DNA from: Giardia intestinalis
Lineage: Eukaryota
Length of the DNA: 64,000 bases
NCBI GenBank assembly: GCA_000002435.2
Contig: CM018792.1
Reading direction: 5' to 3' (one strand)
Shown in pieces: positions 3,904-64,000 of the stretch (position 1 is its first letter; each line of letters begins with the position of its first letter). The notes under the pieces are model-generated. The model saw nothing but the letters and a program-made list of their open reading frames with translations. It ran no database searches and was not told where the DNA came from. Made by a program: the position numbers and the translations under genes.

Positions 3904-6900
3904 CTACTTAACTCTACCAAGGTCAAGATAGCGACATATCTCAGATTGGATTTCAGGTCGGAGAGCCGCCGGCGCCGTAGAGCCTGCGGCTAGCTTCTGT
4001 AGTGCTGTCTCTCCGAACTGTGGGGCACAAGCTGGAGCTAGGATCCTTATGCACGACAGTTGTCCGTACTTCACTGCAAGATCGAGAGCCGATTGGTCAT
4101 TCTCATCAACCAGGTCTAGCTCGTAGGGGACGAGATACTTGACTATGTTTGGATGATCCCACGCCGCAGCGTGCATTAGCGCTGTCCAGCCTAAAGAGTC
4201 CTGCTCGCCCGCTTCGGCGCTTCGCAAAACTTGAACTGCCTCGACGTGCCCCACCTGCGCTGCAATCATGAGAGACGTCATCTGCTGCTTGGTTTCTGTC
4301 ATCTTTTTTTCATACTCGCCCAGCCACTTCAGGCATCGTACGCTTTTCGCGACGATTGCCAGCATCAGCGCTACTGGCTTTCCGATCTCTTGTTTGTTGC
4401 TCAGGTGTATATTGCTGGATATGCGTATCCCTGACTCATGAGGCGCCAGGAGCCGGCATGCTTCTGCATTATCCTTCTCCGCAGCAATCATGAGCGCAGT
4501 TCGACCGTCCGGTCTCCGCATCCCCTTCTCACTGGCGATCAAGTGCTTGATTGCTGGGATGTTATTGCTATACACAGCGATCATCAGGGCTGTGTGTCCA
4601 TCTTTTGTACGCCGGCGAATGCTATCCTTGTATTGCACCAGTGGCTCTGCAGAGCGCATTGCTACGGCTATCATCAGCTGCGTAAAACCATCTTCCTCCA
4701 ACAGGCACTTTTCATGTGTGATAAGCAGCTTCAAGCACGCAACTCGACCCATCTCTATGGCGTAGCGTGAAGCGCACCAGCTCATACTATCGCGTCTTCC
4801 GGCCTGGTACGGTATCAGAATCTTTAATCTCGCACAGTCTCCTTCCCGTGCAGCCAACATCAAGAGGGTTCTACCTGTTGCAGATCCCTCGAGAATAGGT
4901 ATTGGTAGGTCAGCTTCGTACTTACAGAGCCTTTCCATAACATTTAGGTTCTTGTTCTCATATGCATGATAGAGGGCAGTCTTTCCTTTGAAGTCGGCAA
5001 GGCCCTTCTCATAAGGTCCGAGGACATCAATGAGACGCAGTGACTGGCGGTCAATGCAGTACATAAGAGCGGTCTTCTGGAGAGAATCCTGGACTCCGTG
5101 TTCATGCCGTGCCAGGATCATTGCAATGTCGTAGTAGCTTTTGCGGAGCGCAAGCATAAGTGCTGTGCACCCCTTATCGTCACGGCGTTTGGCGTGTGTT
5201 TTCCTTAACGAAAAAACAGCATCAATGTCGTTATTAGCCACCGCTTGAAATAATGCGTCCGGTCCAGGAGCAGAGATAGCCGTGTTCCAAATTTTCATTA
5301 TATTGGGGCTGAGTAGATATTGTGCTGTGGCTCTCTTGACATCGCCCTTGTTCACCGATCCAGGCGACTGAAGAGTCTCCGAATCAAGGGTGCATTTAGC
5401 TCCAGGAAGAGTCGGGGTTGATCTAGACAATGAAAATGGCGTACCGGCTAATGACTGTGAAGATTCACGAATAGGGGAATTCTTACCAGGAATCTGTGGG
5501 CTTGTCATTGTGTGTGAACTACTGGACGGATCAGTCAAACTATTATTGCTAATGAAGCTTGCTAGAACGCCCTTCATAGATGCACTGTTAGAGTGAATGT
5601 CCTGCTTAGGTAGAATCTCCTCGTAATAGTTAATGATTGTATTGATTGCGTCTGTGCTTCCATGCCGTAGTGCAAGAATAAATGGGGTGGTTCCGTTGGC
5701 TAGCACGAGATCTCCTTCCTCGGGCAATAGAGCTTCCACAGCATCTTTGCGATTGAAGATACACGCAAACATAAGAGCGGTGTAACCAAACGAGTCTGTT
5801 TTCCCCGCAAAACTCTTTTGCATCACTTTGAAAGAATTGATGTTATAACAGGCAACTGCCTTCATCAAAGGTGTGAACTTGCACTTCTTTAAAAGGTCCT
5901 TTTCATAGCTCAGTAGAACACTGATAGAGTCTTCAGCTCTGGAAGTAAATGCTAAATGCAACGCAAACTCTTCAGAATCTGTTTCCATGCCTGCCTCCAT
6001 CTCGGCAAGAGCCTTCACCAACGTCTTATTGTTATTCATAGATGCGTACATTAAAGCTGTCATCCCATCAGGTCCTCTGATTCCTGCTTCAACACTGACT
6101 AGCTCGAGTCCCTCTTCTGTGCGCCCTCTTTCACAAGCCAACATAAGAGCCGTCATCCCATTATTATTCATCTTCTTAGCCATGTAAGGAATCAGCGTCC
6201 GTATTAGCTCGATATCCCCCATTTCTACGGCACGCATAAGATACGTTGTGTTTGTTGCCTCATTTGTTGTGAGCTGCGCTACAATTCCTTGCGCGTGGCT
6301 TGCGCTGAGCAAAATCCGCAAAATGTCGATGTTCTGATTTTGAAGCGCGATCATGAGGGGGCTTCGGCTTCCTAATTCCCGCAAGCCTAGCTCTAAACTT
6401 GCAAGCAAACGCACTATCTCTAGGTTAGAATGCTCTACAGCTATTAGCAACGCCGTTTCTTTCTTTTTATTCCGTAGGCCAGCCTCCGACTTTAGTAGAA
6501 GCTTCGCCACATCAGCCGCGCCAGTTCGGGCACAATACATTAGAGCACTATTTCCTGCAGAATCGCGTATACCTGATTGGTAAATGTAGTCTTGAGCTAG
6601 CAGAACATCGTTACTTATGGCTGCTTTCATTAGCGAGGTGACTCCCATACCATCAGGATAAAACGTAGTTCGAAGAAAGTTTTCAACAGTTCGGAGAGGC
6701 TCCATGACGAGCATTGTGGAAATCCATGGAAATCTGTCGGGGAAATATTTTAGAACAGCCTCATTTATCGTGGGCCATTTCTTCTTTGTGCTATCTTCGC
6801 TGTCCTCACTATCCTCGCTATAAGTAGTGCTTCTTGACCCTTCAACGACAATACCGCATGGTTGAACTGCCACACATACGGTAGAATTCAAGCTATTAAG

Positions 6901-15525: not shown

Positions 15526-17856
15526 ATGTTTTCCGAGACGATCGGACGGCTCTACAAGAACCACGTCGTCATAGGGAATGGTTCGTTTGGAAAGGTTTTT
15601 AGCGCCCAACGGGTATCAGACAGCAAAACAGTGGCCGTGAAGGAGGTTGACACAACTGGTGCTGGACTCGCAGAGCGGATGATTATCCTCGCTGAATACA
15701 CATATTACCCGCACATTGTTGATCCTAATGTTGTCACATGTTATACAACACACTTCGATAAGGAGTCCGGACAGCTATACCTCGAGATGGAATATTGTCC
15801 CGGTGGATCTCTTTCAGACCTGATCAAGAGCCAACGAGTGAGGAAGCAACCCCTCCCCGAGCGGACTATTTGGCAGATTTTCAAAGGATTGGCCTCAGCA
15901 CTTGTTTATCTTCATTCCCCAGAAAAGAAACCCACCGTGGGTGCAATCATCCACAGAGACATTAAACCGACCAATATTGTCTTTACCAAGGATGGTATCG
16001 CTAAGATATGTGACTTCGGCCTCTCTCGAGGGCTGCACGAACTGTCGATGGCCTCTAGCAGAGTAGGAACAGATGCTTACATGGCTCCAGAGGTCAATGA
16101 CGGCGAGTACAATGAAAAAGTAGACGTATGGTCGCTAGGATGCGTCATTTTGGAACTGTGCAGCCTTCATAAGCCAAAGCCCCGCGACCCCATCATCCTG
16201 GAGGCATACTCACCACAGCTAGCATCAATACTTAGAAACTGTCTGACAGTCTCACCAGACGATCGCATATCCAGCGCTAGGCTGCTCCACTTACTATCGA
16301 CGCAAGAGTCCGAAGCATTGTCACGCAAGCCATCCACATACTATGGTTTAGATGACAATGACGAAGATACTGAAGAGGACGCGGGGGACTTAGAGCTACG
16401 AGAACAGAAGGAGAAGATCCGCGCTCAGGAACAGATGCAGCAGGAATGCAACGCAGAGGCGGTAGTAGAGGAAAATGAAAATGCAAGAACAGAAGCAGAC
16501 GCCGAGATGGAATCCTTGGTCTTTTTCGACCAAAACATCACTCTTCCAACTACACATAGTACAGAAGCTGAAGACGACAATGAGCACTGTTCTCAATTGG
16601 ATGCAACGTCTGTCATTCATGAAGTCCCAGAATTGACGGCTACATCTATCCTTAAGCAGTTAGATTTTGCCAGCAAAGACCCAGAACTGGTTCGATCGTT
16701 ACTGTTACAGTATGCATCTGCTTTGGAGACCCGTGACAACGAGATTGCTCAGCTCAAGGGTCTGCTCAGTTTCCAGAATCAACGACTCCCCTTGTCCACG
16801 GCACGCCCCAGTATAGAGACACCGATCTGCATGAGCACTGACACTCATGCAGAGTCCATAGACTTCACTGTCAAAGAGCCGACACAGTTTGGTACTATTA
16901 CCGAGAAAGAATCAATCTGTCCATCTCCACGGTCTTTTGATTGCAGCATGGGGATTGTGCTAGATGATTTGGTTGCAAATCAGCATAGATTGAAGACGAA
17001 TATAGAGATAGATATCTTGCAACGCTCTATTAAAGCCAAGGACGCCATTATTGATAGTATGAAGAAGCAATCGGAAGCAGATGCCAAAGGAACAAAGGTC
17101 TTTATAGATGCTCTTTATAAAGACATCAATACTTTAGAATCCGAGGTGCGAGAAAAGAACATTATCATTGATGAGCTTTGCGAGGCTATTGAAAAGAATA
17201 GTACACTGTTGGACTCCGCCAAACGAAGGGGAAGTCTAGGCATGTCCACAGATGGCTCATTTACAGACAGAAGCAAGTCTGCCACACCCGAAGGTAGGCG
17301 TCCCCGTAGAAATTCACTATACAGTTCTGATATGGCCGACAAGGAGCAGGAGATCCAGCACTTGAAGGACGAGCTTATCAAGCAGCAGGCAGAAAGCGCC
17401 GCCCTCAGGGAACAGAAGTTTATCAAGCAGGAGTGCATCATCCAAGACTTGACCGCGTCTCTCCGCGCAGCTACCGCCGAGATAGACTCTCTTCGACAAA
17501 AGGTTGCACTGCAAAGCCCAGTGCAAAGCAGCTTGTCTTCAAGCACGCTTACTGTGGTTAAAATGCCGAGCCTTGAGCTATCACAGTATGTATTCCAAAT
17601 CAATGAGTTGGAGCAAATTAAGGAAACACTCTCAGAGGAGCTAGAAGCAAAGGACTCAACAATACAGCAACTACGCGAAGCAATACTGCACCAGGAGATC
17701 TCCTTTACTAAGTTGCGCGAGGCCTCAGAGGCCACCCAAGCAGAAAATAGGAAGCTTCATGACACCATCAGGATGCAGGCTGGTACCATCTCGGCCTTGG
17801 TTCGGAAGAGGAGCCCTCAATTATCCTCAAATGCAAGCCCCCCTGGTAAGCAATAA
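15526..17856 (+). CDS. NEK-family Ser/Thr protein kinase with a C-terminal coiled-coil region; catalytic residues intact
   Basis: GNGSFGKV glycine loop, VAVKEV, HRDIKPTNIVF, DFGLSRG and YMAPEV motifs. Track start was GTG at 15472; first ATG is at 15526. Confidence 0.8.
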   Translation: MFSETIGRLYKNHVVIGNGSFGKVFSAQRVSDSKTVAVKEVDTTGAGLAERMIILAEYTYYPHIVDPNVVTCYTTHFDKESGQLYLEMEYCPGGSLSDLIKSQRVRKQPLPERTIWQIFKGLASALVYLHSPEKKPTVGAIIHRDIKPTNIVFTKDGIAKICDFGLSRGLHELSMASSRVGTDAYMAPEVNDGEYNEKVDVWSLGCVILELCSLHKPKPRDPIILEAYSPQLASILRNCLTVSPDDRISSARLLHLLSTQESEALSRKPSTYYGLDDNDEDTEEDAGDLELREQKEKIRAQEQMQQECNAEAVVEENENARTEADAEMESLVFFDQNITLPTTHSTEAEDDNEHCSQLDATSVIHEVPELTATSILKQLDFASKDPELVRSLLLQYASALETRDNEIAQLKGLLSFQNQRLPLSTARPSIETPICMSTDTHAESIDFTVKEPTQFGTITEKESICPSPRSFDCSMGIVLDDLVANQHRLKTNIEIDILQRSIKAKDAIIDSMKKQSEADAKGTKVFIDALYKDINTLESEVREKNIIIDELCEAIEKNSTLLDSAKRRGSLGMSTDGSFTDRSKSATPEGRRPRRNSLYSSDMADKEQEIQHLKDELIKQQAESAALREQKFIKQECIIQDLTASLRAATAEIDSLRQKVALQSPVQSSLSSSTLTVVKMPSLELSQYVFQINELEQIKETLSEELEAKDSTIQQLREAILHQEISFTKLREASEATQAENRKLHDTIRMQAGTISALVRKRSPQLSSNASPPGKQ

Positions 17857-54808: not shown

Positions 54809-56254
54809 CAATCGTGGCCGACCTTGTGTTTGGTGAAGGTATTAGGTGGACTTAAGCTCGCTAGCTAAATGGTCACTGAATTCTCTGAGCAAAAGGGCAC
54901 GAGGTTCTGTAAATGCCGTTTTCTCTAGCTGGCTTTCAAATAAAGTTATCTCATCTATAGCCTCCTGGTGAGAAAGGCTGCGCGGGTCCTCTGAGAAGGT
55001 TATTTCCATTTTAAAAATAGATCTATTCTATCTCCTTACTTATCAATGCGTATTTGCACAGATAAAGTGTACGTATGTACGTGATTAATATCTGAATGTC
55101 CAGAGTAGATAATTACTTAACCTCGAATGTACGTTTTCACCTCATCATGAACGTGGTGCGTGGAAGAACGACACTAATACCCTTCATGACTCAGACTATT
55201 TACTAGAGGGTTCTATGCCGTTTCAGATGAGACAGCATCATTCGCTGAGCCAGGTGCTTGGATCTGTACGTTTACTCTCTCCGTTTCACCGAGGTGGGGT
55301 TGCCATCTGCCACCTGAGCAATCCCCTCCATGCGAGCCACCGCCACTCTGGGTAGGCGGGTCCCTCCCGCCCTTGCACCAGCTGAGATCCAGAGTCCAGA
55401 GTCTAGAAACCAAAATCTGAGAATATGAGCTCAGATGTCAAGCGATTCCGGTGGGAGAAGAAGAAGTTTTCCACTTTCCCTCTCGGGAGTCTCTGTCGCT
55501 CTTCGCGGTGCCTTCCGAGGCTCTCCCATCTTCTGGCCTTTCGGGTCAGCTGTCGTCTGATATCTAGTGAGCACCCGTTGTCTCGGGCTTTTCCGTCAGC
55601 CACAGCAGTCTGGCCTCAGAAGCAGCTGACCCTGGCCATGTACTCCAGAGTCGCCTTGGTGCTGGTACTCTATCACGAAGATCGCATACGCCACGAACCT
55701 CAGGTGTCGATCCCTAGGTCCCTGAGGTGCTCCCTCGTCTTCTCGTGGAGGGTGCCGTCAGTCCCGAGTATGATCGGGAGGGTGCTCCCCGTATGCCTCT
55801 ATCTTAGAGTGGTAGTACGAGCTCATGGACGCCGGCTGGACCACTCCTATGTCGACGGCCTGGCTGGTGTCTGGAAAGAAGAGGTCCGGCTCTGGTTCTC
55901 CTTGTCATGGTCAACCCATACCTTCTGCTCGTGGATCACAGTGCACCTCTTCTTCGACATTATGTGATCAGTCATCCAACACGAGATCATGTCGACGCTC
56001 ACCCTATGCAGTGCGTCTGGCTCAGTGACGATGTGGTCTGCATCTCCTTGCATCGCACAGCACACTTGGAGGTGATGCTTTGGTCTGCCGAGACAGTCGG
56101 TCCAAGCCCGCATCTTTTCGAGAGGCGGCGGAAGGCGTCGTCCGGAAGCATCAGGAACGATCCGAAGACATGATTGATGTACGAGCCTGTGCTCACCGTT
56201 AGGTCGTCTCGCTCAGCAACCGGTTCGCGATGCTCCGTCGTCACGTCGAAGGTG

Positions 56255-56815
56255 TTAAATGCATCGCGCAGTTGCTTGTGATAGACGCCCGGCAGGTGGA
56301 CTCCCAGGCCGCCACTCTTCTTCGGTGCCGCCAGGAACGATCCACCTCTTCGGGTCAGAGCCGAGTATCCCTCCAAGGGCCTCTCCGACCTGCCTGTCGA
56401 AGGATTCATATTGTTCAACTGGTGAGTCCATCTCGACGAGCGGTGCGTAGCCGGCCATCGGAATGGCGTTGATCCTGGCCAGCGTCAGCTTGGCGTGGTG
56501 GGTGATCGGCGCGTCCATCACCAGCTTCAAGCTCTCTGCTGCCTTCTCTATCGCCCTGGGGGCTATGGACTGCTTCTCCTTCGAGACCGGGGCCCCCGGG
56601 AAGGAGACCTCCTGTCCTCTTTGGGTGCTCTTGCACTTGTCAATGTTGACTGTCAAACCATATCGTTTCGCCAGGGCTGTCGCCTCTGTGATTATCCCCG
56701 TCGCGTCGCTGTCGTTGGCATGGAAGCTGAGTGCGTCGTCAGTGTAGGCAATGAGTAGGGTATCTCTCCTTCGGCTCCTGGTGAGCAGGTTCTGTCCCCC
56801 GCAGCACAGAAGCAT
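56255..56815 (-). pseudogene. reverse-transcriptase fragment of retroelement copy A
   Basis: Translation contains LLIAYTDDALSF (YxDD motif C) followed by GLTVNIDKCKSTQRG (non-LTR RT motif D/E pattern GLxlNxxKT). Flanked by stops and frame breaks. Confidence 0.6.
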
Positions 56816-57279
56816 GCTCAGGGCCCTGAGGGACCGAGTCCAGGGGTGCAGCGTGGCGCAATTAGAGGAAGGCCTCGATGTAGTTCTCAGGATGAAGGGT
56901 ACACTCGCCTGGCCGAGGCCGTCTGCTGTTGGGGCTCTCGTTATGTCGAGCGAGGCCGCTGTGTTCCGTCAATCTGCATCTCCATGTATGCCATGCGGAC
57001 ACCACCCATGTGCGTTCAGGTGGAGTGCATCTGCTCGGTCTCTAGAAAGGCCAGTGTCTGGGTCTCCAGGGGGCTCAGCAGTATCTGTGAAACACAGCCA
57101 TGATCGTCCACTGATTGTGCTTGTCCTGTCTCATCATTGGGAAGAGGGTAGAACAAGAGTTCTTCCGCTCTCCAGACCTGGTTGACATCTGATCTTCGGG
57201 CTCTGGACGTGGATCTCAGGCGATGTATGGACAGGAGGTACCCGCTTGCCTAAGGCGGTGGCTCGCATGAGGGGATCAT
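56756..57279. repeat. copy 1 of a near-identical ~520-bp inverted repeat (partner at 61912-62432)
   Basis: Direct comparison: 56756-57279 equals the reverse complement of 61912-62432, apart from a few mismatches near 56760-56790. The identical 142-144-aa ORFs 56751-57185(+) and 62006-62434(-) reflect this. Confidence 0.85.
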
Positions 57280-57465
57280 TCCAGGAAGATGGAACCGTTA
57301 CATTATATCTACTGCTGTTCAGCTGTGATATTACATTAGAACTTGATTCTATTAATTTCGATAAAGTAACATTAGACACCGAGAAGGAAGCAATGTACAC
57401 AAAAACTGACACACATCCACAAACAGCACGAAAGCGTAGTGAAATGGTCGCTATTCACTCTAGGA

Positions 57466-58497
57466 TCATTTCGAGAGGATATCTACTATCTCTTTGTGAC
57501 CCTTCTTCTTAGCGATGTCAAGGGCAGTAGTACGGGGCGGGTAACCACAGTAGTCATAGACTGTCATCAGCTGCCTCTCCCCTAAGAGTAACTCAACACA
57601 CTCTATGTGGTCACCCCACACCGCATTCATAAGAGCTGTCCATCCTTTATCATTCTTCATGCCACTTTCTCTTCCTAACAGAAGCCTGACACACTCTGGA
57701 TGGCCATTACGTGCTGCCCACATGAGAGCAGTTTGACCGGTATTATTCTCCATGCCACTCTCTTTTTTGAGCAGCTCTACAACCCCTCTGTGCCCTTGCG
57801 CTGCCGCATACATAAGCGCTGTCCATCCACCAGCATCCTGGCCCCTCCTCATGTGAAGGTTGTTTCTGACTGCACCGATATCACCACGGTAAGCGGCGTA
57901 TATGAGTCCTGTCCACCCTGAGACACTGCTCTCATACCCCACCAGAAGCTCAACGCACCTAGGATAGTCTACCAGGGGGTCATTGGAACGGCCACTCCGT
58001 GCCGCGAATACGAGAGCGGTCCAACCGCCTACTTTCGCACCTCCTTCGTAACCCGCTAGCAGTTCTACTATTTCTGCGTATCCATGTGCCGCAGCCATCA
58101 TCAGCGCGGTTCCCCCCTTGTACATGGTCATCTCATCTATCTTGAAGCCTCCGGACGCCTTCTGTCCTTCCTGAAGGGGAGCAAGCGCCTTCACAGTACC
58201 TACATCATTTCTGTCAACAGCTCTCATGAGGGCAGTAAATCCGTTTTTGTCGGTGGGGTCGAGGAGCTCAACGATGTTCTTGTGTCCTGCCCTCGCAGCT
58301 ATGATCAGCGCTGTATCCCCCTCGCTGTTCTTCTTGTCTTTGTCTGAGAGATGCTTCTCGGCTGCCTCGAAGTCTCCGTCCGCAGCAGCGTGCATGAGAG
58401 GCGTCCAGGACAAATCCCTTGTGAACTGAGGTCCTGCATCGACATCCCCTTGACCAGAACTGCCTACTCGCGACCCTCCGCGTTCGTTGCGTGCCAT
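57466..58497 (-). CDS. protein 21.1 family ankyrin-repeat protein (343 aa)
   Basis: ATG at 58495-58497. Repeats GDTALIIAARAGH, GFTALMRAVDRND, GGTALMMAAAHGY, GWTALVFAARSGR, GWTALMYAAAQGH, GQTALMWAARNGH, GWTALMNAVWGDH. Confidence 0.75.
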   Translation of the reverse strand: MARNERGGSRVGSSGQGDVDAGPQFTRDLSWTPLMHAAADGDFEAAEKHLSDKDKKNSEGDTALIIAARAGHKNIVELLDPTDKNGFTALMRAVDRNDVGTVKALAPLQEGQKASGGFKIDEMTMYKGGTALMMAAAHGYAEIVELLAGYEGGAKVGGWTALVFAARSGRSNDPLVDYPRCVELLVGYESSVSGWTGLIYAAYRGDIGAVRNNLHMRRGQDAGGWTALMYAAAQGHRGVVELLKKESGMENNTGQTALMWAARNGHPECVRLLLGRESGMKNDKGWTALMNAVWGDHIECVELLLGERQLMTVYDYCGYPPRTTALDIAKKKGHKEIVDILSK

Positions 58498-59469
58498 TCC
58501 TTATTTTTCTTGCCGAAGAAAGGGGCTAAAACACCTGTAATTCACACTGTAATCTACAGCTCAGTCAAATGATGTCCATACATGTATTCCTATATAACTT
58601 TGGCCCTTGCTGATTCTTTCTGTTGCATATAACTGTATGTAGTGTTATGCGTCCATGCCCGGCCTCTGCTCCTTCGTGCTGCGGCTAGCTGGGATCTTGT
58701 GAAGTACTAGGCTAGAGCCATTAACAGCGTGGAACACTGGTGGGCTTTCATCTCACCCGCAAAGTGCAGTGCGCTATGCTCTGTCTGTGAGCACTCATGC
58801 TTGACTACCCGAATGGGCTGCGTGATGTAGACTACTCTGAGACTGTAACCAAGGATTCGTGCTCAGTGCTAATTCATCTGCCGCTGTCGTTGGACCTCGT
58901 GGCAGCCATGATCTCAGATGCCTTGTGCTTACATCTGTAAGTCTTCTATGGTTGAAGAAAGTGTCTGTACGAACAGCGGGGGGCTCTCCCATGGGTTGCA
59001 GCTATGCCCATTGCAGGACCTTCAGGTCTCCTTGGACGTAGCCTGCCCAAGCTCAGTGGACTGCTGTGCAGAGAGTGTAGTCGCTCTTCGCCTGTTACGC
59101 TTTCTCCTGAAGAAGGCACGTTGCGGGAGCACTTCAAGCCCTACACTAGTGGAAAGCGCCATCGGCAGAACGCAGTCCACTGAATTCTCACGAAAGAAGC
59201 CGCTTCCACAGGATGCCCGTGGAGAGCGGCGCAGACGGCCCCCGCTCTATCTACACATGCAAGCTGGCCCCTTCGGCACACACGTTCTGCACCTTGTACG
59301 AGGCAGAGGGGTCCTGATGGGATAAAGTACCGACGCGTGTTACGGTGTGAGTGGGACGAATGACGAAGAACCAAAAAACGGTCTTACACATGCTAACAGC
59401 GTTGAACAGTGTACACTGTGGTCTCTATAGACCCACAAAGCCATCACAAAAAACGAGGAAACGACCCTG

Positions 59470-59904
59470 ATGAGCCAGGACGAGGGCAAAGCGGCAGAAG
59501 AATCCTTTGGCCGCTGGTTTTCTGCTGCACAGCGCGGAGATTGCGCCTATCTAAAACAGCATATAGCGACCATGCGGCGAGCCGTGGACTCCCGAGGAAT
59601 GACTGCGCTGATGCATGCAGCGGATGCAGGTCACGCATCGTATGTCCAAGCACTGGTTAGTGAAGCGTGCGAAATCAGCTCTGAGGGGTTCAAGGCTCTT
59701 AGGTACGCAATCCGCGCGTCCTCGATTGATGCTGCAGGAGTCTTGCTTCCGTATGAGGGCTCTGTTGAGACCTCTTCCGGTCTTTCTCCACTCCTTATGT
59801 TATTGAAGCGCAAGCAGGACACCATTGCACATATGTGCTTTGAGCATATGGATTCGTCTAAAGATCTGGCTCAAGGGAAGGATGGGGAGTTAGAAAGATA
59901 TTAA
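59470..59904 (+). CDS. short ankyrin-repeat (21.1-like) ORF, 144 aa; possibly the N-terminal fragment of a split gene
   Basis: ATG at 59470. Contains GMTALMHAADAGHASYVQALV. Its stop overlaps the next ATG in TAATG (59902-59906). Confidence 0.5.
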   Translation: MSQDEGKAAEESFGRWFSAAQRGDCAYLKQHIATMRRAVDSRGMTALMHAADAGHASYVQALVSEACEISSEGFKALRYAIRASSIDAAGVLLPYEGSVETSSGLSPLLMLLKRKQDTIAHMCFEHMDSSKDLAQGKDGELERY

Positions 59905-61148
59905 TGTTTGCTACTGAGCTGAACGACTACGGGCTCCTGCAGGATGCCATCCGTCGCTGTCATAAGCTGCCTGCGGGCGATATAGCTGAAGTACTTTCTC
60001 TCGAAACAGCTACCGGCCCAACCTTTTGCATAACGTACCTCATGGGTGTGCTTGACGGATTCGCACACCGGGATGACTCAAGGCGCCAACACGCTTCTCC
60101 CACACTGATCACAACGACTCCAGATGTTGTAAAGGGTGGCCCCAAAGTAGATGAGAACGGCAACACTCTCTTGATGAGGGCAGTCATGACCTTCAACTAT
60201 AAGAAGATGCCCGACTATTCTTCTATCCTGTGCAGAAGCGTGAACAGGGAGGGGAAGACTGCGCTCATGATCGCGGCAGAAATAGGCAATGAGTCCGCTG
60301 CGGCAATACTCAGGAAATACGAGGCGAAGATCCAAGATCCTGCTGGAATGACGGCCCTGATGTTCGCCGTGAACAAGGGAAATTTAAAGCTCGTCCAGAC
60401 GCTGTTAAAGTATGAGGTTGGTCTGAAGGACGTTGCAGGCCGGACGGCGCTGATGCATGCAGTACTATCAAACAAGCAGCCTATTATTCAGGAACTTATC
60501 AAGTGTGAGACTAGCAACCAAGACTTTCAGGGCAAAACAGCCCTTATCTATGCCGTAGAGCAGAACCTTTATCAAGCCTGCAAGGCGCCCATTCCTTATG
60601 AAGCGGGCTTGGTGGACCATAGGGGTCTGCGTGCAATAGATTATGCCAAGCTCTTCGACAATATGGAGCTGATAGATCTTTTAGAGGACTCAGAAGGAAT
60701 TTCACGAAACTCTCTTCAGCAGATCCTGCTTCGTCACGGGTGGCTAGCGCCACGCATATCCAGGCCCAGCCCCAGTCGTAGTAGCCCTAAGCCGGCTCTC
60801 TCTGGTTCCACTGTGAGCAAGCCCACTACTTCAACACAAGATAAGCAGCACACTACTGTAGATGTGAATAAAGAAGGCTCACTGCCTGAAGACGCGAAGG
60901 TATTTTCCACCGATCTTATCTCTGCTGTCCACGCCAGTAGGTACTATGACATCGGTGTTCTAGCCCCACATCTTGCCAACATGAGAGATCACCACAACCT
61001 CACGGCACTCCACTACGCTATCTACCAGAATAAACGAGTGGCAGTACGCATCTTGCTTCCTCACGAATACGAATCCCTTAATGGGTTTACTATTCCACCA
61101 GAGACGCGACCAGAGATAGTTGAGATGATAAACCTCTATAGGAAGTGA
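59904..61148 (+). CDS. protein 21.1 family ankyrin-repeat protein (414 aa)
   Basis: ATG at 59904 (frame +2 relative to the previous ORF). Repeats GNTLLMRAV, GKTALMIAAEIGN, GMTALMFAVNKGN, GRTALMHAVLSNK, GKTALIYAVEQN, LTALHYAIYQNK. Confidence 0.65.
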   Translation: MFATELNDYGLLQDAIRRCHKLPAGDIAEVLSLETATGPTFCITYLMGVLDGFAHRDDSRRQHASPTLITTTPDVVKGGPKVDENGNTLLMRAVMTFNYKKMPDYSSILCRSVNREGKTALMIAAEIGNESAAAILRKYEAKIQDPAGMTALMFAVNKGNLKLVQTLLKYEVGLKDVAGRTALMHAVLSNKQPIIQELIKCETSNQDFQGKTALIYAVEQNLYQACKAPIPYEAGLVDHRGLRAIDYAKLFDNMELIDLLEDSEGISRNSLQQILLRHGWLAPRISRPSPSRSSPKPALSGSTVSKPTTSTQDKQHTTVDVNKEGSLPEDAKVFSTDLISAVHASRYYDIGVLAPHLANMRDHHNLTALHYAIYQNKRVAVRILLPHEYESLNGFTIPPETRPEIVEMINLYRK

Positions 61149-61208
61149 AGCTCTCATATAAGTACCCATTCAATCTGTATAGGCAGGCCTGTGAGGTATC
61201 TATGGAAC

Positions 61209-61865
61209 TCATTTCTTTTTACCGCCACGTGAGTTGTTCTTGAAGAAGATTATGTCCCCATCTTCAACAACGTAGTTCTTCCCTTCGGTGCGGACCTTCC
61301 CGGCTGCCTTGGCCTCTGCTTCGGACCCTAACCTCTTGAGATCCTTATAAGTGTAAACCTCTGCACATATAAAATAGTCGCGGAAGTCGCTGTGGATAAC
61401 CGCGCCTGCGTCCGGTGCCTTGGTGTATTTTCTGACCGTCCAGCATCTAACTTCGTCTGCACCACATGTGAAGAAATGACAGAGGTTCAATGCCTTATAT
61501 CCCGTCTTGATGATCTTATCGAGAGCCAACTCCACAACGGAACCGTCAGGGAGCTTGTATTTTGAGGGGAGCTCTCTGAGGTAAGCATTTCTAGCCTCTG
61601 CAGAGCCTAGCTCCAAAAGTGTCGCCTCTAGCTTGGCGCTGTACGGCACTATATGCGCAGTCTCGTTTTTGGCCGTTATCCGTTCCTGTATCTTAGTAAG
61701 GAACTTATTCTTCTTCTTACTATAATCTGCCTCACTCATGTTCAAAAGGTAGACCACAGGCTTGCAACTAAGCAACTGCAGCTCGTTGAGAATCTCCACC
61801 TCACGGGACGACCAGCCCTGGGCAAAGAGGTCCTTCTTTTCCTTGAGTAGTCCCTCTATTTTTAG
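61209..61865 (-). pseudogene. 5'-truncated OLA1/YchF (Obg-like ATPase) fragment: C-terminal half only, G-domain missing
   Basis: Translation aligns with human OLA1 residues ~200-396 (KPVVYLLNMSEADYSKKKNKF, ALNLCHFFTCGADEVRCWTVRKYTKAPDAGAVIHSDFRDYFICAEV, GKNYVVEDGDIIFFK). The track ORF starts with GTG at 61883, inside retroelement ITR sequence. No Walker A / G1-G4 region and no ATG until codon 49. Homology stops exactly where the ITR of copy B begins. Confidence 0.6.
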
Positions 61866-61911
61866 GTTTACTTTCCGGTTCACCGGGGTAGGGTTGTCAC
61901 CTGCTGCTTGG

Positions 61912-62432
61912 ATGATCCCCTCATGCGAGCCACCGCCTTAGGCAAGCGGGTACCTCCTGTCCATACATCGCCTGAGATCCACGTCCAGAGCCCGAAGATC
62001 AGATGTCAACCAGGTCTGGAGAGCGGAAGAACTCTTGTTCTACCCTCTTCCCAATGATGAGACAGGACAAGCACAATCAGTGGACGATCATGGCTGTGTT
62101 TCACAGATACTGCTGAGCCCCCTGGAGACCCAGACACTGGCCTTTCTAGAGACCGAGCAGATGCACTCCACCTGAACGCACATGGGTGGTGTCCGCATGG
62201 CATACATGGAGATGCAGATTGACGGAACACAGCGGCCTCGCTCGACATAACGAGAGCCCCAACAGCAGACGGCCTCGGCCAGGCGAGTGTACCCTTCATC
62301 CTGAGAACTACATCGAGGCCTTCCTCTAATTGCGCCACGCTGCACCCCTGGACTCGGTCCCTCAGGGCCCTGAGCATGCTTCTGTGCTGCGGGGGACAGA
62401 GCCTGCTCACCAGGAACTGAAGGAGATACTCC
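61912..62432. repeat. copy 2 of the near-identical ~520-bp inverted repeat (partner at 56756-57279)
   Basis: Reverse complement matches 56756-57279 almost base for base. Flanking retroelement sequence is only ~80-85% similar. Confidence 0.85.
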
Positions 62433-62463
62433 ACTCAGTGTCTATATTGACGACAGTGACGCG

Positions 62464-62655
62464 ATGGGGACAGTCACAGAGGCGACAGGCCTGGCGAAGC
62501 AACATGGCTTGACGGTCAGCACTGGGTGTAGGAGCACTGAGGGGCAGGAGGCCTCCTTCCTGGCCGGTCTCAAGGATCCCCCAAGACAACCGAAGGCCGA
62601 AGCCAGTGATGGCACCAATCACTCGCCAAGCTGGCCGGGATGGACCCACACGTGA
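62464..62655 (+). pseudogene. reverse-transcriptase fragment of retroelement copy B
   Basis: TVTEATGLAKQHGLTVSTGCRSTEGQEASF parallels copy A's IITEATALAKRYGLTVNIDKCKSTQRGQEVSF. The upstream YIDD box is in another frame. Confidence 0.45.
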
Positions 62656-63127
62656 CCCATGTGAATCCCTCGACAGGCAAGTCGGGATCCTTGGGGTGCT
62701 TGGCTGGCAGAGGCGGACTGATCCTGCCTGCACCGAAGAGTGGTGGCGGCTCGCATGAGAAATCACTCAGATAACAGATGAGAGTAAATCAGGGGACTTT
62801 GTTGAAAAAGAAACGGCGACTCGAACTTCACCCACCACGAAGGAAGACCAAGGATAGGCGCCACCGGTAGACCAGAGAGTCTACAAGAAGGCCTGAATTC
62901 AAGGTAGATCGATGTGTACACCCAGACAGAGCATATCCTCATGGAGCAGCCGAGGAGCGCCCAGATTCTGAATGTGTCACTAAAGAGGACTCTCTCGTCA
63001 TGTTATTCGCAACCAACCCTCATCTTTGGATGACCAGGACTTAAATGAAAGCTTACCCGTGAGATCCTTGAATGCACTTGCGGGCAGGCCCCAGCAACAC
63101 ATCTACATGAGCTACATACGGTGACGC

Positions 63128-63146: not shown

Positions 63147-64000
63147 CTACGCCTTGCCCCTGCAGATGAACCACCAGCAGAGGAATCCGACGAGGCCTCC
63201 TACAACAACAATCACAGCGACGGAGATCCCCGCGATGGCCCCCGTGGAAAGGCCACTCCTGTTGGTGCTGTCTCCTCCAGTATCTCCGCCGGTGCCATCG
63301 TCAGCCTTTTGTTGCGTTACGTAACAGGTGACAGGGCCATTGCCACCAGCTGGCGGGGCACAGCTTATGCAGTTTTCTACACCAGTTATTGCATTAGAGC
63401 TAGCCTTATCACTATCCGTGCATTTGAAGCATTTATCACCGGCACCTTTGTAATACCCTGCTAAGCAATCTGTGCAGGTTTCCTTACTACCCGCACACTT
63501 CACACATCCTTCAGTACACGCCGGACATTTTCCTCCAGCTGGGCTTTGTCCATTGGCACACGTTTGGCATTGTCCCTTATTCTGTGCAGCCGTACACACA
63601 GAGCTACCAGGAAGCTTCTGTGTGTTGTAGCATCCGCCCGATAACAGAGCGTAGTTTGCCCCACACTCAGTGCATTTCCCGCCACTTGCCTTACATCCGG
63701 AGGCATCTCTCGCTGTTGCAGGTATGGATGTGCAGACGCCGTCGACTGGGGCGTACCCCTCCTCGCACTGATCGCAGTACTTCGAGCCTCCGACGTTCAG
63801 TGAGCAGCCGTCGGCCTTGCAGTGGGCCATAAAGTCTCCCGTGCACTCCTTTATACAGGTACCCTTAGCATTCGTCTCATCACGCTTCAACACGTATCCC
63901 GGATAGCAGGCCGTGCACGACGTTTCTGCGTTAGTACTACAGCTTGCGCACGATTCGTGGCACAGATTACAAACGTTAGCGTCAGTGCGAGTTCCCGCGG
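63147..64000 (-). CDS. variant-specific surface protein (VSP); 3' portion only, N-terminus lies beyond the window end
   Basis: CXXC-rich ectodomain and Gly/Thr-rich spacer, then TM helix AIAGISVAVIVVVGGLVGFLCWWFI and the invariant C-terminal CRGKA. The frame is open to nt 64000. The track's M at 63893 is GTG (Val). Confidence 0.85.
   Translation of the reverse strand, partial: AGTRTDANVCNLCHESCASCSTNAETSCTACYPGYVLKRDETNAKGTCIKECTGDFMAHCKADGCSLNVGGSKYCDQCEEGYAPVDGVCTSIPATARDASGCKASGGKCTECGANYALLSGGCYNTQKLPGSSVCTAAQNKGQCQTCANGQSPAGGKCPACTEGCVKCAGSKETCTDCLAGYYKGAGDKCFKCTDSDKASSNAITGVENCISCAPPAGGNGPVTCYVTQQKADDGTGGDTGGDSTNRSGLSTGAIAGISVAVIVVVGGLVGFLCWWFICRGKA

Follow-up and report, generated by a model that had tools for sequence, protein, structure and literature searches.

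A probable non-functional partial duplicate of OLA1 joined to the end of a degenerate retroelement in Giardia intestinalis

A 64,000-nucleotide (nt) stretch of Giardia intestinalis contig CM018792.1 (GenBank assembly GCA_000002435.2), hereafter the window, contains a minus-strand open reading frame (ORF) that matches only the C-terminal part of OLA1/YchF and abuts the terminal inverted repeat (ITR) of a degenerate retroelement, of which the window holds two inverted copies, A and B. This ORF is very likely a 5′-truncated partial duplicate of an intact OLA1 gene, GL50803_114246, and most probably a non-functional relic. Giardia has a normal OLA1; no gene was destroyed and nothing was lost, because the fragment is a partial duplicate that was copied together with 2.7 kb of downstream genomic DNA. 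An earlier, sequence-only reading of the window had described a pseudogene fragment created by insertion plus rearrangement. “Pseudogene fragment” is still the best label, but the notion of an insertion that truncated a gene is wrong, since the parent is intact.

What does the fragment encode? The minus-strand frame runs from stop to stop over 61209–61940 (TAA at 61938–61940, TGA at 61209–61211); the ORF as listed covers 61209–61883, starts with GTG at 61883 and specifies 224 amino acids (aa), and the first in-frame ATG of the fragment is at 61739 (M49). Its sole Pfam match is to PF06071 (YchF-GTPase_C; E 1.2e-35), the C-terminal TGS-like YchF_C domain of the YchF/OLA1 family, with all 84 profile positions covered. 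Alignments to the OLA1 structures from rice (5ee0, residues 191–395; E 1.6e-58) and human (2ohf, residues 195–391) reach the last residue, bearing out the proposal that only the C-terminal part of OLA1 is present. The other hallmark of the family, a P-loop G domain (G1 GxxxxGKS, G3 DxxG; MMR_HSR1), is missing from the ORF, and tblastn with full-length OLA1 proteins as queries found no N-terminal OLA1 half (Walker A, DxxG) in the 64-kb window. The earlier claim that the G domain is absent is correct for G1–G3 but not for the domain as a whole: the fragment keeps N48-M49-S50-E51, invariant among the OLA1 sequences aligned, which corresponds in YchF/OLA1 structures to the G4 NxxE motif, C-terminal to the coiled-coil insertion. 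The fragment spans the second half of the coiled coil, this G4-aligned stretch and the TGS/YchF_C domain; it is a truncated OLA1 derivative and not a working YchF/OLA1 member, because the N-terminal defining features of the family are lacking.

Aligned to full-length Giardia OLA1 genes, the OLA1 homology begins exactly at 61865, which corresponds to parent codon 189, and all sequence upstream of this point is element ITR, with the tip of copy B at 61866; homology does end at the outer edge of the ITR, as had been noticed from the letters. At the breakpoint (slash), the parent reads …CAATATAC/CTAAAAATAGAGG and the fragment reads …GGAAAGTAAAC/CTAAAAATAGAGG; only AC is common to the two, a microhomology of 2 nt. 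The ITR tip, in the form GTTTACTTTCCGGTTCAC, directly abuts the OLA1 homology, and the element supplies 24 codons of the stop-to-stop frame or 6 of the GTG ORF (GTG AAC CGG AAA GTA AAC, from the outermost ITR bases of copy B), instead of the first 10 that had been attributed to it. The same reading placed the junction sequence, duplicated at 55268–55300, inside the ITR and not in the OLA1 flank; this was right, because the tip motif GTTTACTCTC(TC)CGTTTCAC recurs at the outer end of copy A, at other element ends in the window and at element ends in isolate P15, and 55267–55401 matches 61863–61990 at 74.8% identity.

In isolate WB, the parent gene encodes a 406-aa protein (XP_001708009.1/KAE8305284.1, that is, GL50803_114246) and lies on a 4.0-Mb record. 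The protein belongs to a cluster of 25 members that includes GS EET02224.1, P15 EFO62172.1, DH ESU36180.1 and further assemblage B records, as well as DH “partial” entries of 224 aa and 180 aa. Full-length Giardia OLA1 genes carry both MMR_HSR1 and YchF_C, and G. muris has a full-length OLA1 too. With intact 406-aa genes in WB, GS, DH and P15, the gene-truncation framing falls, and so does the scenario, raised earlier as a possible refutation, in which Giardia OLA1 would be naturally short. The supplement of the P15 genome paper groups fragments with the 1221-nt gene GL50803_114246/GL50581_489 (PMC3091692). Over 218 shared codons, the WB parent is 96% identical to the fragment, with 9 nonsynonymous and 20 synonymous positions between them; the cluster representative is 87% identical to the fragment. 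These 29 differences all fall within 61266–61865, and residues specific to the fragment are G23, S26, L119 and A191 (ORF numbering), arising from the protein changes S23G, P26S, S119L and V191A. The idea that Giardia lacks the G-domain half was traced to a search artefact: a word-indexed protein search with the fragment omitted the full-length Giardia cluster yet returned hundreds of proteins of about 50% identity, so that negatives of this kind do not equal absence, and a full-length query recovered the cluster. Before that, the Giardia proteins listed had been short C-terminal ones from P15, and an N-terminal query had brought up none from Giardia.

Homology to the parent locus does not stop with OLA1. 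It runs past the OLA1 stop codon and ends at the ATG of a second ankyrin gene, taking in the OLA1 3′ half, intergenic DNA, an opposite-strand gene for protein 21.1 (an ankyrin protein) and the DNA upstream of it (Table 1). This segment is colinear with the P15 parent locus (L007, 6565–9942) at 90.3% identity over 3384 nt; a WB-type parent contig (L006) matches the window from 61870 to the contig end at 98.3% over 1858 nt. An intact parent elsewhere in the same genome and homology that extends into flanking non-coding DNA and neighbouring genes are both features of duplicated pseudogenes; judging by these alignments, the segment is a DNA-level segmental duplicate. A processed retrocopy of OLA1 mRNA was rejected, because homology continues across the intergenic DNA and the antisense gene.

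The segment sits between the two inverted element copies, the whole block spanning 55267–62789, and Pfam detects ankyrin domains in the block's ankyrin genes. Compared with the 559-aa gene of the P15 parent locus, the duplicated protein 21.1 gene lacks 1 nt near 59886; the loss breaks it into two ORFs and shows as a frame change in tblastn. According to the alignment (GGGGAG-TTAG in the window, GGGGAGTTTAG otherwise), the missing base belongs to a short run of T and is present in the P15 and DH copies; its absence could be a real frameshift or a sequencing error. Of the protein 21.1 copies elsewhere, that in DH is interrupted by an early stop, and P15 has a truncated form. The second ankyrin protein is 77% identical to its counterpart in a P15 block and 35% identical in aa to the parent-locus neighbour, to which, on this comparison, it is unrelated beyond the family level.

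Table 1. Positions of the OLA1 fragment, the duplicated segment and the flanking element copies in the window
Feature	Position	Strand	Description
OLA1/YchF fragment	61209..61865	-	parent codons 189–406 plus stop
ITR/OLA1 junction	61865/61866		CCCCGGTGAAMCGGAAAGTAAACCTAAAAATAGAGGG
Host segment duplicated from the OLA1 parent locus	58495..61865	-	3.4 kb
Duplicated protein 21.1 (ankyrin) gene	59470..61148	+	two ORFs
Second ankyrin gene of the block	57466..58497	-	not from the parent locus
Element copy A	55267..57284	-	degenerate retroelement, ~2.0 kb
Copy A outer ITR	55267-55401		inner ITR cut off at 57284
Copy A reverse transcriptase remnant	56255-56815	-	ORF with RVT_1 match
Element copy B	61866..62789	+	degenerate retroelement, internally deleted (~924 nt), inverted relative to A
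Copy B inner (5′-end) ITR	61866..61995	.	
Inverted repeat arms between A and B	56765..57284 and 61907-62426		520 nt, 99% identical

How old is the junction? The window, DH (L008) and two P15 loci (L001 and L004) share one and the same boundary, …GTAAAC/CTAAAAATAG; a third P15 locus, L002, has this GTAAAC/CTAAAAATAG boundary too, with the ITR tip duplicated in tandem ahead of it. The ITR/OLA1 junction is thus identical across five independent records. Because it is shared by assemblage A (the WB window and DH) and by three assemblage E (P15) copies, the junction has a single origin that predates the A/E split, with later copying of the complete block to other sites. In P15, the loci hold the entire block (~8.6 kb: full-length element, OLA1 fragment, ankyrin genes, inverted element), while the outer flanks differ among L001, L002 and L004; several copies with the same ends at unrelated loci are what a mobile composite unit would leave. 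Relative to WB, the P15 blocks have been listed as “insertion of a gene segment”, “putative transposon insertion” and “insertion of genes” (PMC3091692); the matching sites in WB, reported empty, are CH991814:419986, CH991814:507540–513078 and CH991763:397367. As to target-site duplications or poly(A), no word of at least 6 nt is common to the outer flanks (60 nt each) of L004, nor to those of the window block.

Several observations on these copies stand on their own. In L002 (P15, ACVC01000071.1; 9700–9900), 18–21 nt of the ITR tip occur in tandem at the junction (GTGAAACGGAGAGTAAAC GAC GTGAAACGGAAAGTAAAC), and L004 shows a comparable partial repeat of GTTTACTC beyond the outer element end (about 16667–16690); these repeats may reflect the making or repair of element ends. 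A 4.2-kb insertion with an intact-looking RVT_1 ORF (422 and 618 aa) interrupts two of the three P15 blocks (L001 12713–16895 and L002 12134–16316, 97.9% identical). The insertion is only 68% identical to copies A and B; this is a different retroelement, possibly a younger one. Finally, window positions 54813–55266 match positions 1–456 of DH L008 (AHGT01000142.1) at 98.7%, marking the same outer flank of copy A, and the block interior (OLA1 fragment and ankyrin genes) is oppositely oriented in DH and in the window. Provided that both assemblies are correct, the difference has the look of an inversion that arose through recombination between the two element copies.

If the fragment is a relic, why does it look so well preserved? 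Between the window fragment and the P15 fragments, the ratio of nonsynonymous to synonymous substitution rates (dN/dS, or ω) is 0.16–0.23. Purifying selection on the fragment, suggested by these values, was withdrawn because comparison with the parent genes showed concerted evolution. Synonymous divergence (dS) is 0.40 between the assemblage A and E parents; between a fragment and the parent of its own assemblage it is 0.158 (window and WB parent) or 0.099 (L001 and P15 parent). Downstream of ~61465, almost all of the informative sites follow assemblage; over its first ~400 nt the pattern is star-like, with a single site separating fragments from parents. Because the 3′ sites group with the parent of the same assemblage, the pattern indicates that the 3′ part of the fragment would have been overwritten by gene conversion from the local parent, atop a single old origin. 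A tract of 100% identity at 61265–60013 comes from L006, a Logan short-read contig that may be collapsed or mosaic; the grouping of the coding part by assemblage is independent of this tract, since the translation of L006 matches the NCBI WB protein exactly and P15 and DH are represented by NCBI assemblies.

Changes specific to the fragment lineages tell a different story from those in the parents. The A and E parents differ by 3 nonsynonymous and 43 synonymous changes (ω 0.01), and the parent lineages have 0 nonsynonymous and 11 synonymous private changes; the fragment lineages have 22 and 19, respectively (ω ~0.3), a significant difference from the A–E parent pair (Fisher p 1e-6). By these counts, the fragment lineages appear to be under relaxed constraint. 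The P15 copies have changes at near-invariant OLA1 positions (F138S, G128R, I124T and H136P) and an in-frame 3-nt deletion. Nor is the start conserved: GTG or an internal ATG would serve in assemblage A, an ITR-derived ATG in L001 and L004. On the disabling changes or loss of constraint expected of a duplicated pseudogene, the fragments give a mixed picture: there are the 5′ truncation, the lack of a conserved start and the 22:19 versus 3:43 contrast, but the frame is open, and ω is ~0.3, a value confounded by conversion.

How could such an arrangement arise? Copying at the DNA level took in 3.4 kb of the parent locus, starting at OLA1 codon 189 and passing across the protein 21.1 gene, and the OLA1 end of the duplicate is joined, with 2 nt of microhomology, to the terminal ITR base of a dead element that bears a reverse transcriptase (RT). 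The junction would then record the joining of an element end to a break inside the OLA1 copy, by integration or end-joining, and not the disruption of a working gene. The microhomology is compatible with either this route or a deletion; because the break coincides exactly with the element terminus, integration or end-joining at the element end is favored over a random deletion. Afterward, conversion from the functional parent would keep overwriting the 3′ part of the fragment, which may explain why it looks young and well conserved, and between conversions the copies would drift under relaxed constraint.

This scheme resembles known systems in part. Like duplicated pseudogenes maintained by conversion, the fragment combines a partial copy and its flanking non-coding DNA with an intact parent, mosaic similarity by genome and relaxed constraint; unlike them, it has a breakpoint exactly on an element terminus and has spread within a larger, repeat-bounded block. 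Like the products of host-fragment capture (5′ or 3′ transduction by LINE-1, Pack-MULEs, Helitrons), it is a host fragment joined to an element end and multiplied together with it; the difference is that no target-site duplication or poly(A) is found at the block ends.

Could the block have passed through RNA instead? A read-through transcript from OLA1 and the ankyrin genes into the element could have been reverse-transcribed from the element 3′ end and 5′-truncated in OLA1, which amounts to 5′ transduction, with the inverted copy B added by template switching onto antisense element RNA. The P15 parent locus itself carries an element relic (L007 11316–11668; ~350 nt, ITR-like, 70–81% identical to copy B) downstream of the second ankyrin gene and in the orientation of copy A. 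The relic and copy A are nearly equally distant from OLA1 codon 189 (4751 versus 4603 nt), OLA1 and copy A are on the same strand, and the 2-nt microhomology at the junction would suit this route as well. A simple form of it is opposed by the loss of parent homology at the ATG of the second ankyrin gene, whose product shares only 35% identity with its parent-locus counterpart. Neither poly(A) nor a target-site duplication was found at the block ends; moreover, Giardia genes are nearly intronless, so that passage through RNA leaves no testable mark. We regard this origin as quite doubtful.

The points that weigh against a non-functional relic are, for the most part, those that would favor a functional gene. 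Each of the six copies examined retains an open frame, except that L002 has lost its stop. The fragment ω of ~0.3 lies under 1 (binomial p between 0.0005 and 0.02, according to the share of sites taken to be nonsynonymous), a weak departure from neutrality that is confounded by conversion. All OLA1 residues invariant among the sequences compared are kept in the window copy. A WB “partial gene repeat” is among ORFs with support from transcription start site sequencing (TSS-seq) and RNA-seq (PMC3792122). Of a different nature are the reliance of the identity tract on L006, the assignment of the element to a family by its features (below) and the route of junction formation, which we infer.

Taken as a gene, the fragment would encode an expressed and selected stand-alone protein of ~176–236 aa, with a partial G domain and TGS, which might serve, for example, as a modulator of OLA1 or as a ribosome- or RNA-binding factor. 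Its openness in the window, DH L008/L009 and P15 L001/L004, its ω, its full set of invariant residues and its place among the transcribed new WB ORFs could all mean selection; they are also to be expected without it, because repeated conversion from a selected parent would preserve both sequence and frame, and RNA-seq reads can cross-map from a parent that is 95–100% identical. The start codon varies between copies, P15 copies carry F138S, G128R, I124T and H136P, L002 has no stop, the rest of the duplicated segment is decaying, and the protein would begin within a coiled-coil helix without a P-loop. A functional gene is therefore unlikely, and a non-functional partial duplicate remains our explanation.

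The earlier proposal that the OLA1 gene itself was broken by retroelement insertion and rearrangement, so that its 3′ half would be an orphan and a 5′ half might survive as another in some other place, is very improbable. The break does lie exactly at the ITR tip, and the earlier observation that the missing 5′ half is not beyond the element stands: tblastn finds none in the window, and none is present in P15, in which the element is full length. Yet every assemblage examined has an intact 406-aa OLA1, as does G. muris, the intact gene is under strong purifying selection (ω 0.01), and the fragment was co-duplicated with downstream DNA of the parent locus. A 5′ half located across the element, or moved by inversion to the outer flank of copy A, was sought and rejected: the window has no such homology, and the far flanks in P15 hold unrelated genes.

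It is scarcely conceivable that the fragment is the 3′ exon of a two-locus, trans-spliced OLA1 mRNA, as in Giardia Hsp90 and dynein heavy chains: several diplomonad matches seem to be C-terminal halves only and ITRs could in principle pair two pre-mRNAs, but those short matches seem to owe their length to gene calls cut off by in-frame TAA/TAG, Giardia has an uninterrupted full-length gene of 406 aa, and homology continues right up to the ITR, where the bases upstream of 61865 are GTAAAC and no acceptor-like motif is found at the fragment start. GTAAAC differs from the branch-point/acceptor motif known in Giardia introns. The suggestion that the fragment might be spliced to, or continuous with, an upstream exon does not apply for the same reasons. 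Hexamitid diplomonads read TAA and TAG as Gln, the reading adopted here since Trepomonas is nearest to the source of the matching contig. A naturally split OLA1, suggested by the short C-terminal matches P0003, P0004, P0009 and P0013, was rejected on L003, a metagenome contig (ENA ERZ16299754) that carries a full-length OLA1 in one frame, with in-frame TAA/TAG, at 4022–5224 (58% identical contig; translation 90% identical to OLA1 of Trepomonas sp. PC1). A standard-code gene call had cut it to 215 aa, and the short matches P0004, P0009 and P0013 were probably cut in the same way.

What is the element to which the fragment is joined? The RT remnant of copy A matches RVT_1 with E 1.5e-5 and 25.2 bits, under the Pfam cut-off of 29.6 bits, and copy A is 68% identical in nt to the P15 element with the 618-aa RVT_1-bearing ORF. 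Copy B has its own outer ITR, ending in GAGAGTAAAT at 62789; it is 90% identical to copy A (61912–62576 versus 57279–56577), and its P15 equivalent is full length (~2 kb). The 93 nt beside the 520-nt inverted repeat are only 80% identical. This step from 99% to 80% suggests, from the alignment, a recent conversion or crossover between copies A and B, for which, as for inversion, the repeat is a probable substrate.

By its features, the element would belong to the GilD/Genie 2 family: it has a putative degenerate RT, ITRs of ~135 nt, an internally deleted copy (B) and a VSP neighbor. These “dead” Giardia retrotransposons, of the non-LTR type (lacking long terminal repeats), were reportedly described by Arkhipova and Morrison in 2001 and by Burke and colleagues in 2002; Genie 2 is said, in the latter work, to have inverted repeats. 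To our knowledge, two inverted copies paired around host genes are not part of the family description. About 360 nt past the outer ITR of copy B lies a cysteine-rich ORF ending in CRGKA (63147–63893, within 63147–64000, minus strand), presumably a VSP gene. GilD adjoins VSP genes and is disrupted by microhomology-mediated deletions (PMC2861651), an association that this ORF fits. On the other side, an uninterrupted 7852-aa ORF (30449–54007, minus strand) ends ~1.2 kb from copy A.

The fragment is already recorded in the literature. In P15, GLP15_1987 was called a “putative truncated pseudogene” of GL50803_114246 (PMC3091692; Jerlstrom-Hultqvist et al. 2010, supplementary files 2, 3 and 6) and reported within an inserted gene segment tied to synteny breaks and RT genes (PMC3091692). 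It belongs to the same fragment family (a C-terminal OLA1 piece of 224–237 aa), with the same ITR junction and the same protein 21.1 neighbor; it differs in being from assemblage E, and that report describes neither the ITR junction, nor the parent-locus origin of the 3.4-kb segment, nor conversion. In WB, positions 199061–199591 of CH991814 were listed as a “partial gene repeat” similar to GL50803_114246 (PMC3792122, Table 2). Their 531 nt are the exact length of window positions 61209–61739, from the first ATG to the stop; they may represent this locus or a sister copy, and no anatomy is given there. What is added here is detail on an object of a known kind: how the junction is built, the locus from which the copy derives, the pattern of conversion and the apparent inversion with respect to DH.

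For annotation, the ORF should be labeled a partial duplicate or pseudogene of GL50803_114246, neither a gene for a GTP-binding protein nor evidence for the loss of OLA1. It also illustrates that a pseudogene may appear constrained when it undergoes conversion by a parent under selection: a pairwise A–E dN/dS of 0.16 would, taken alone, suggest function. Mobility of the block is deduced from copy number and published synteny tables. It is improbable that the 7.5–8.6-kb block still moves or is copied whole, spreading host gene fragments in Giardia genomes; if it did, this would account for three P15 insertions at sites reported empty in WB, and the block would flip its interior through recombination between its arms. 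In a weaker variant of this idea, the fragment may be kept because an OLA1 tail without a P-loop has a function. As it stands, the element-bounded block, which has multiplied in assemblage E and apparently differs in orientation between WB and DH, illustrates on a modest scale the genome plasticity that goes with repeats near Giardia VSP genes.

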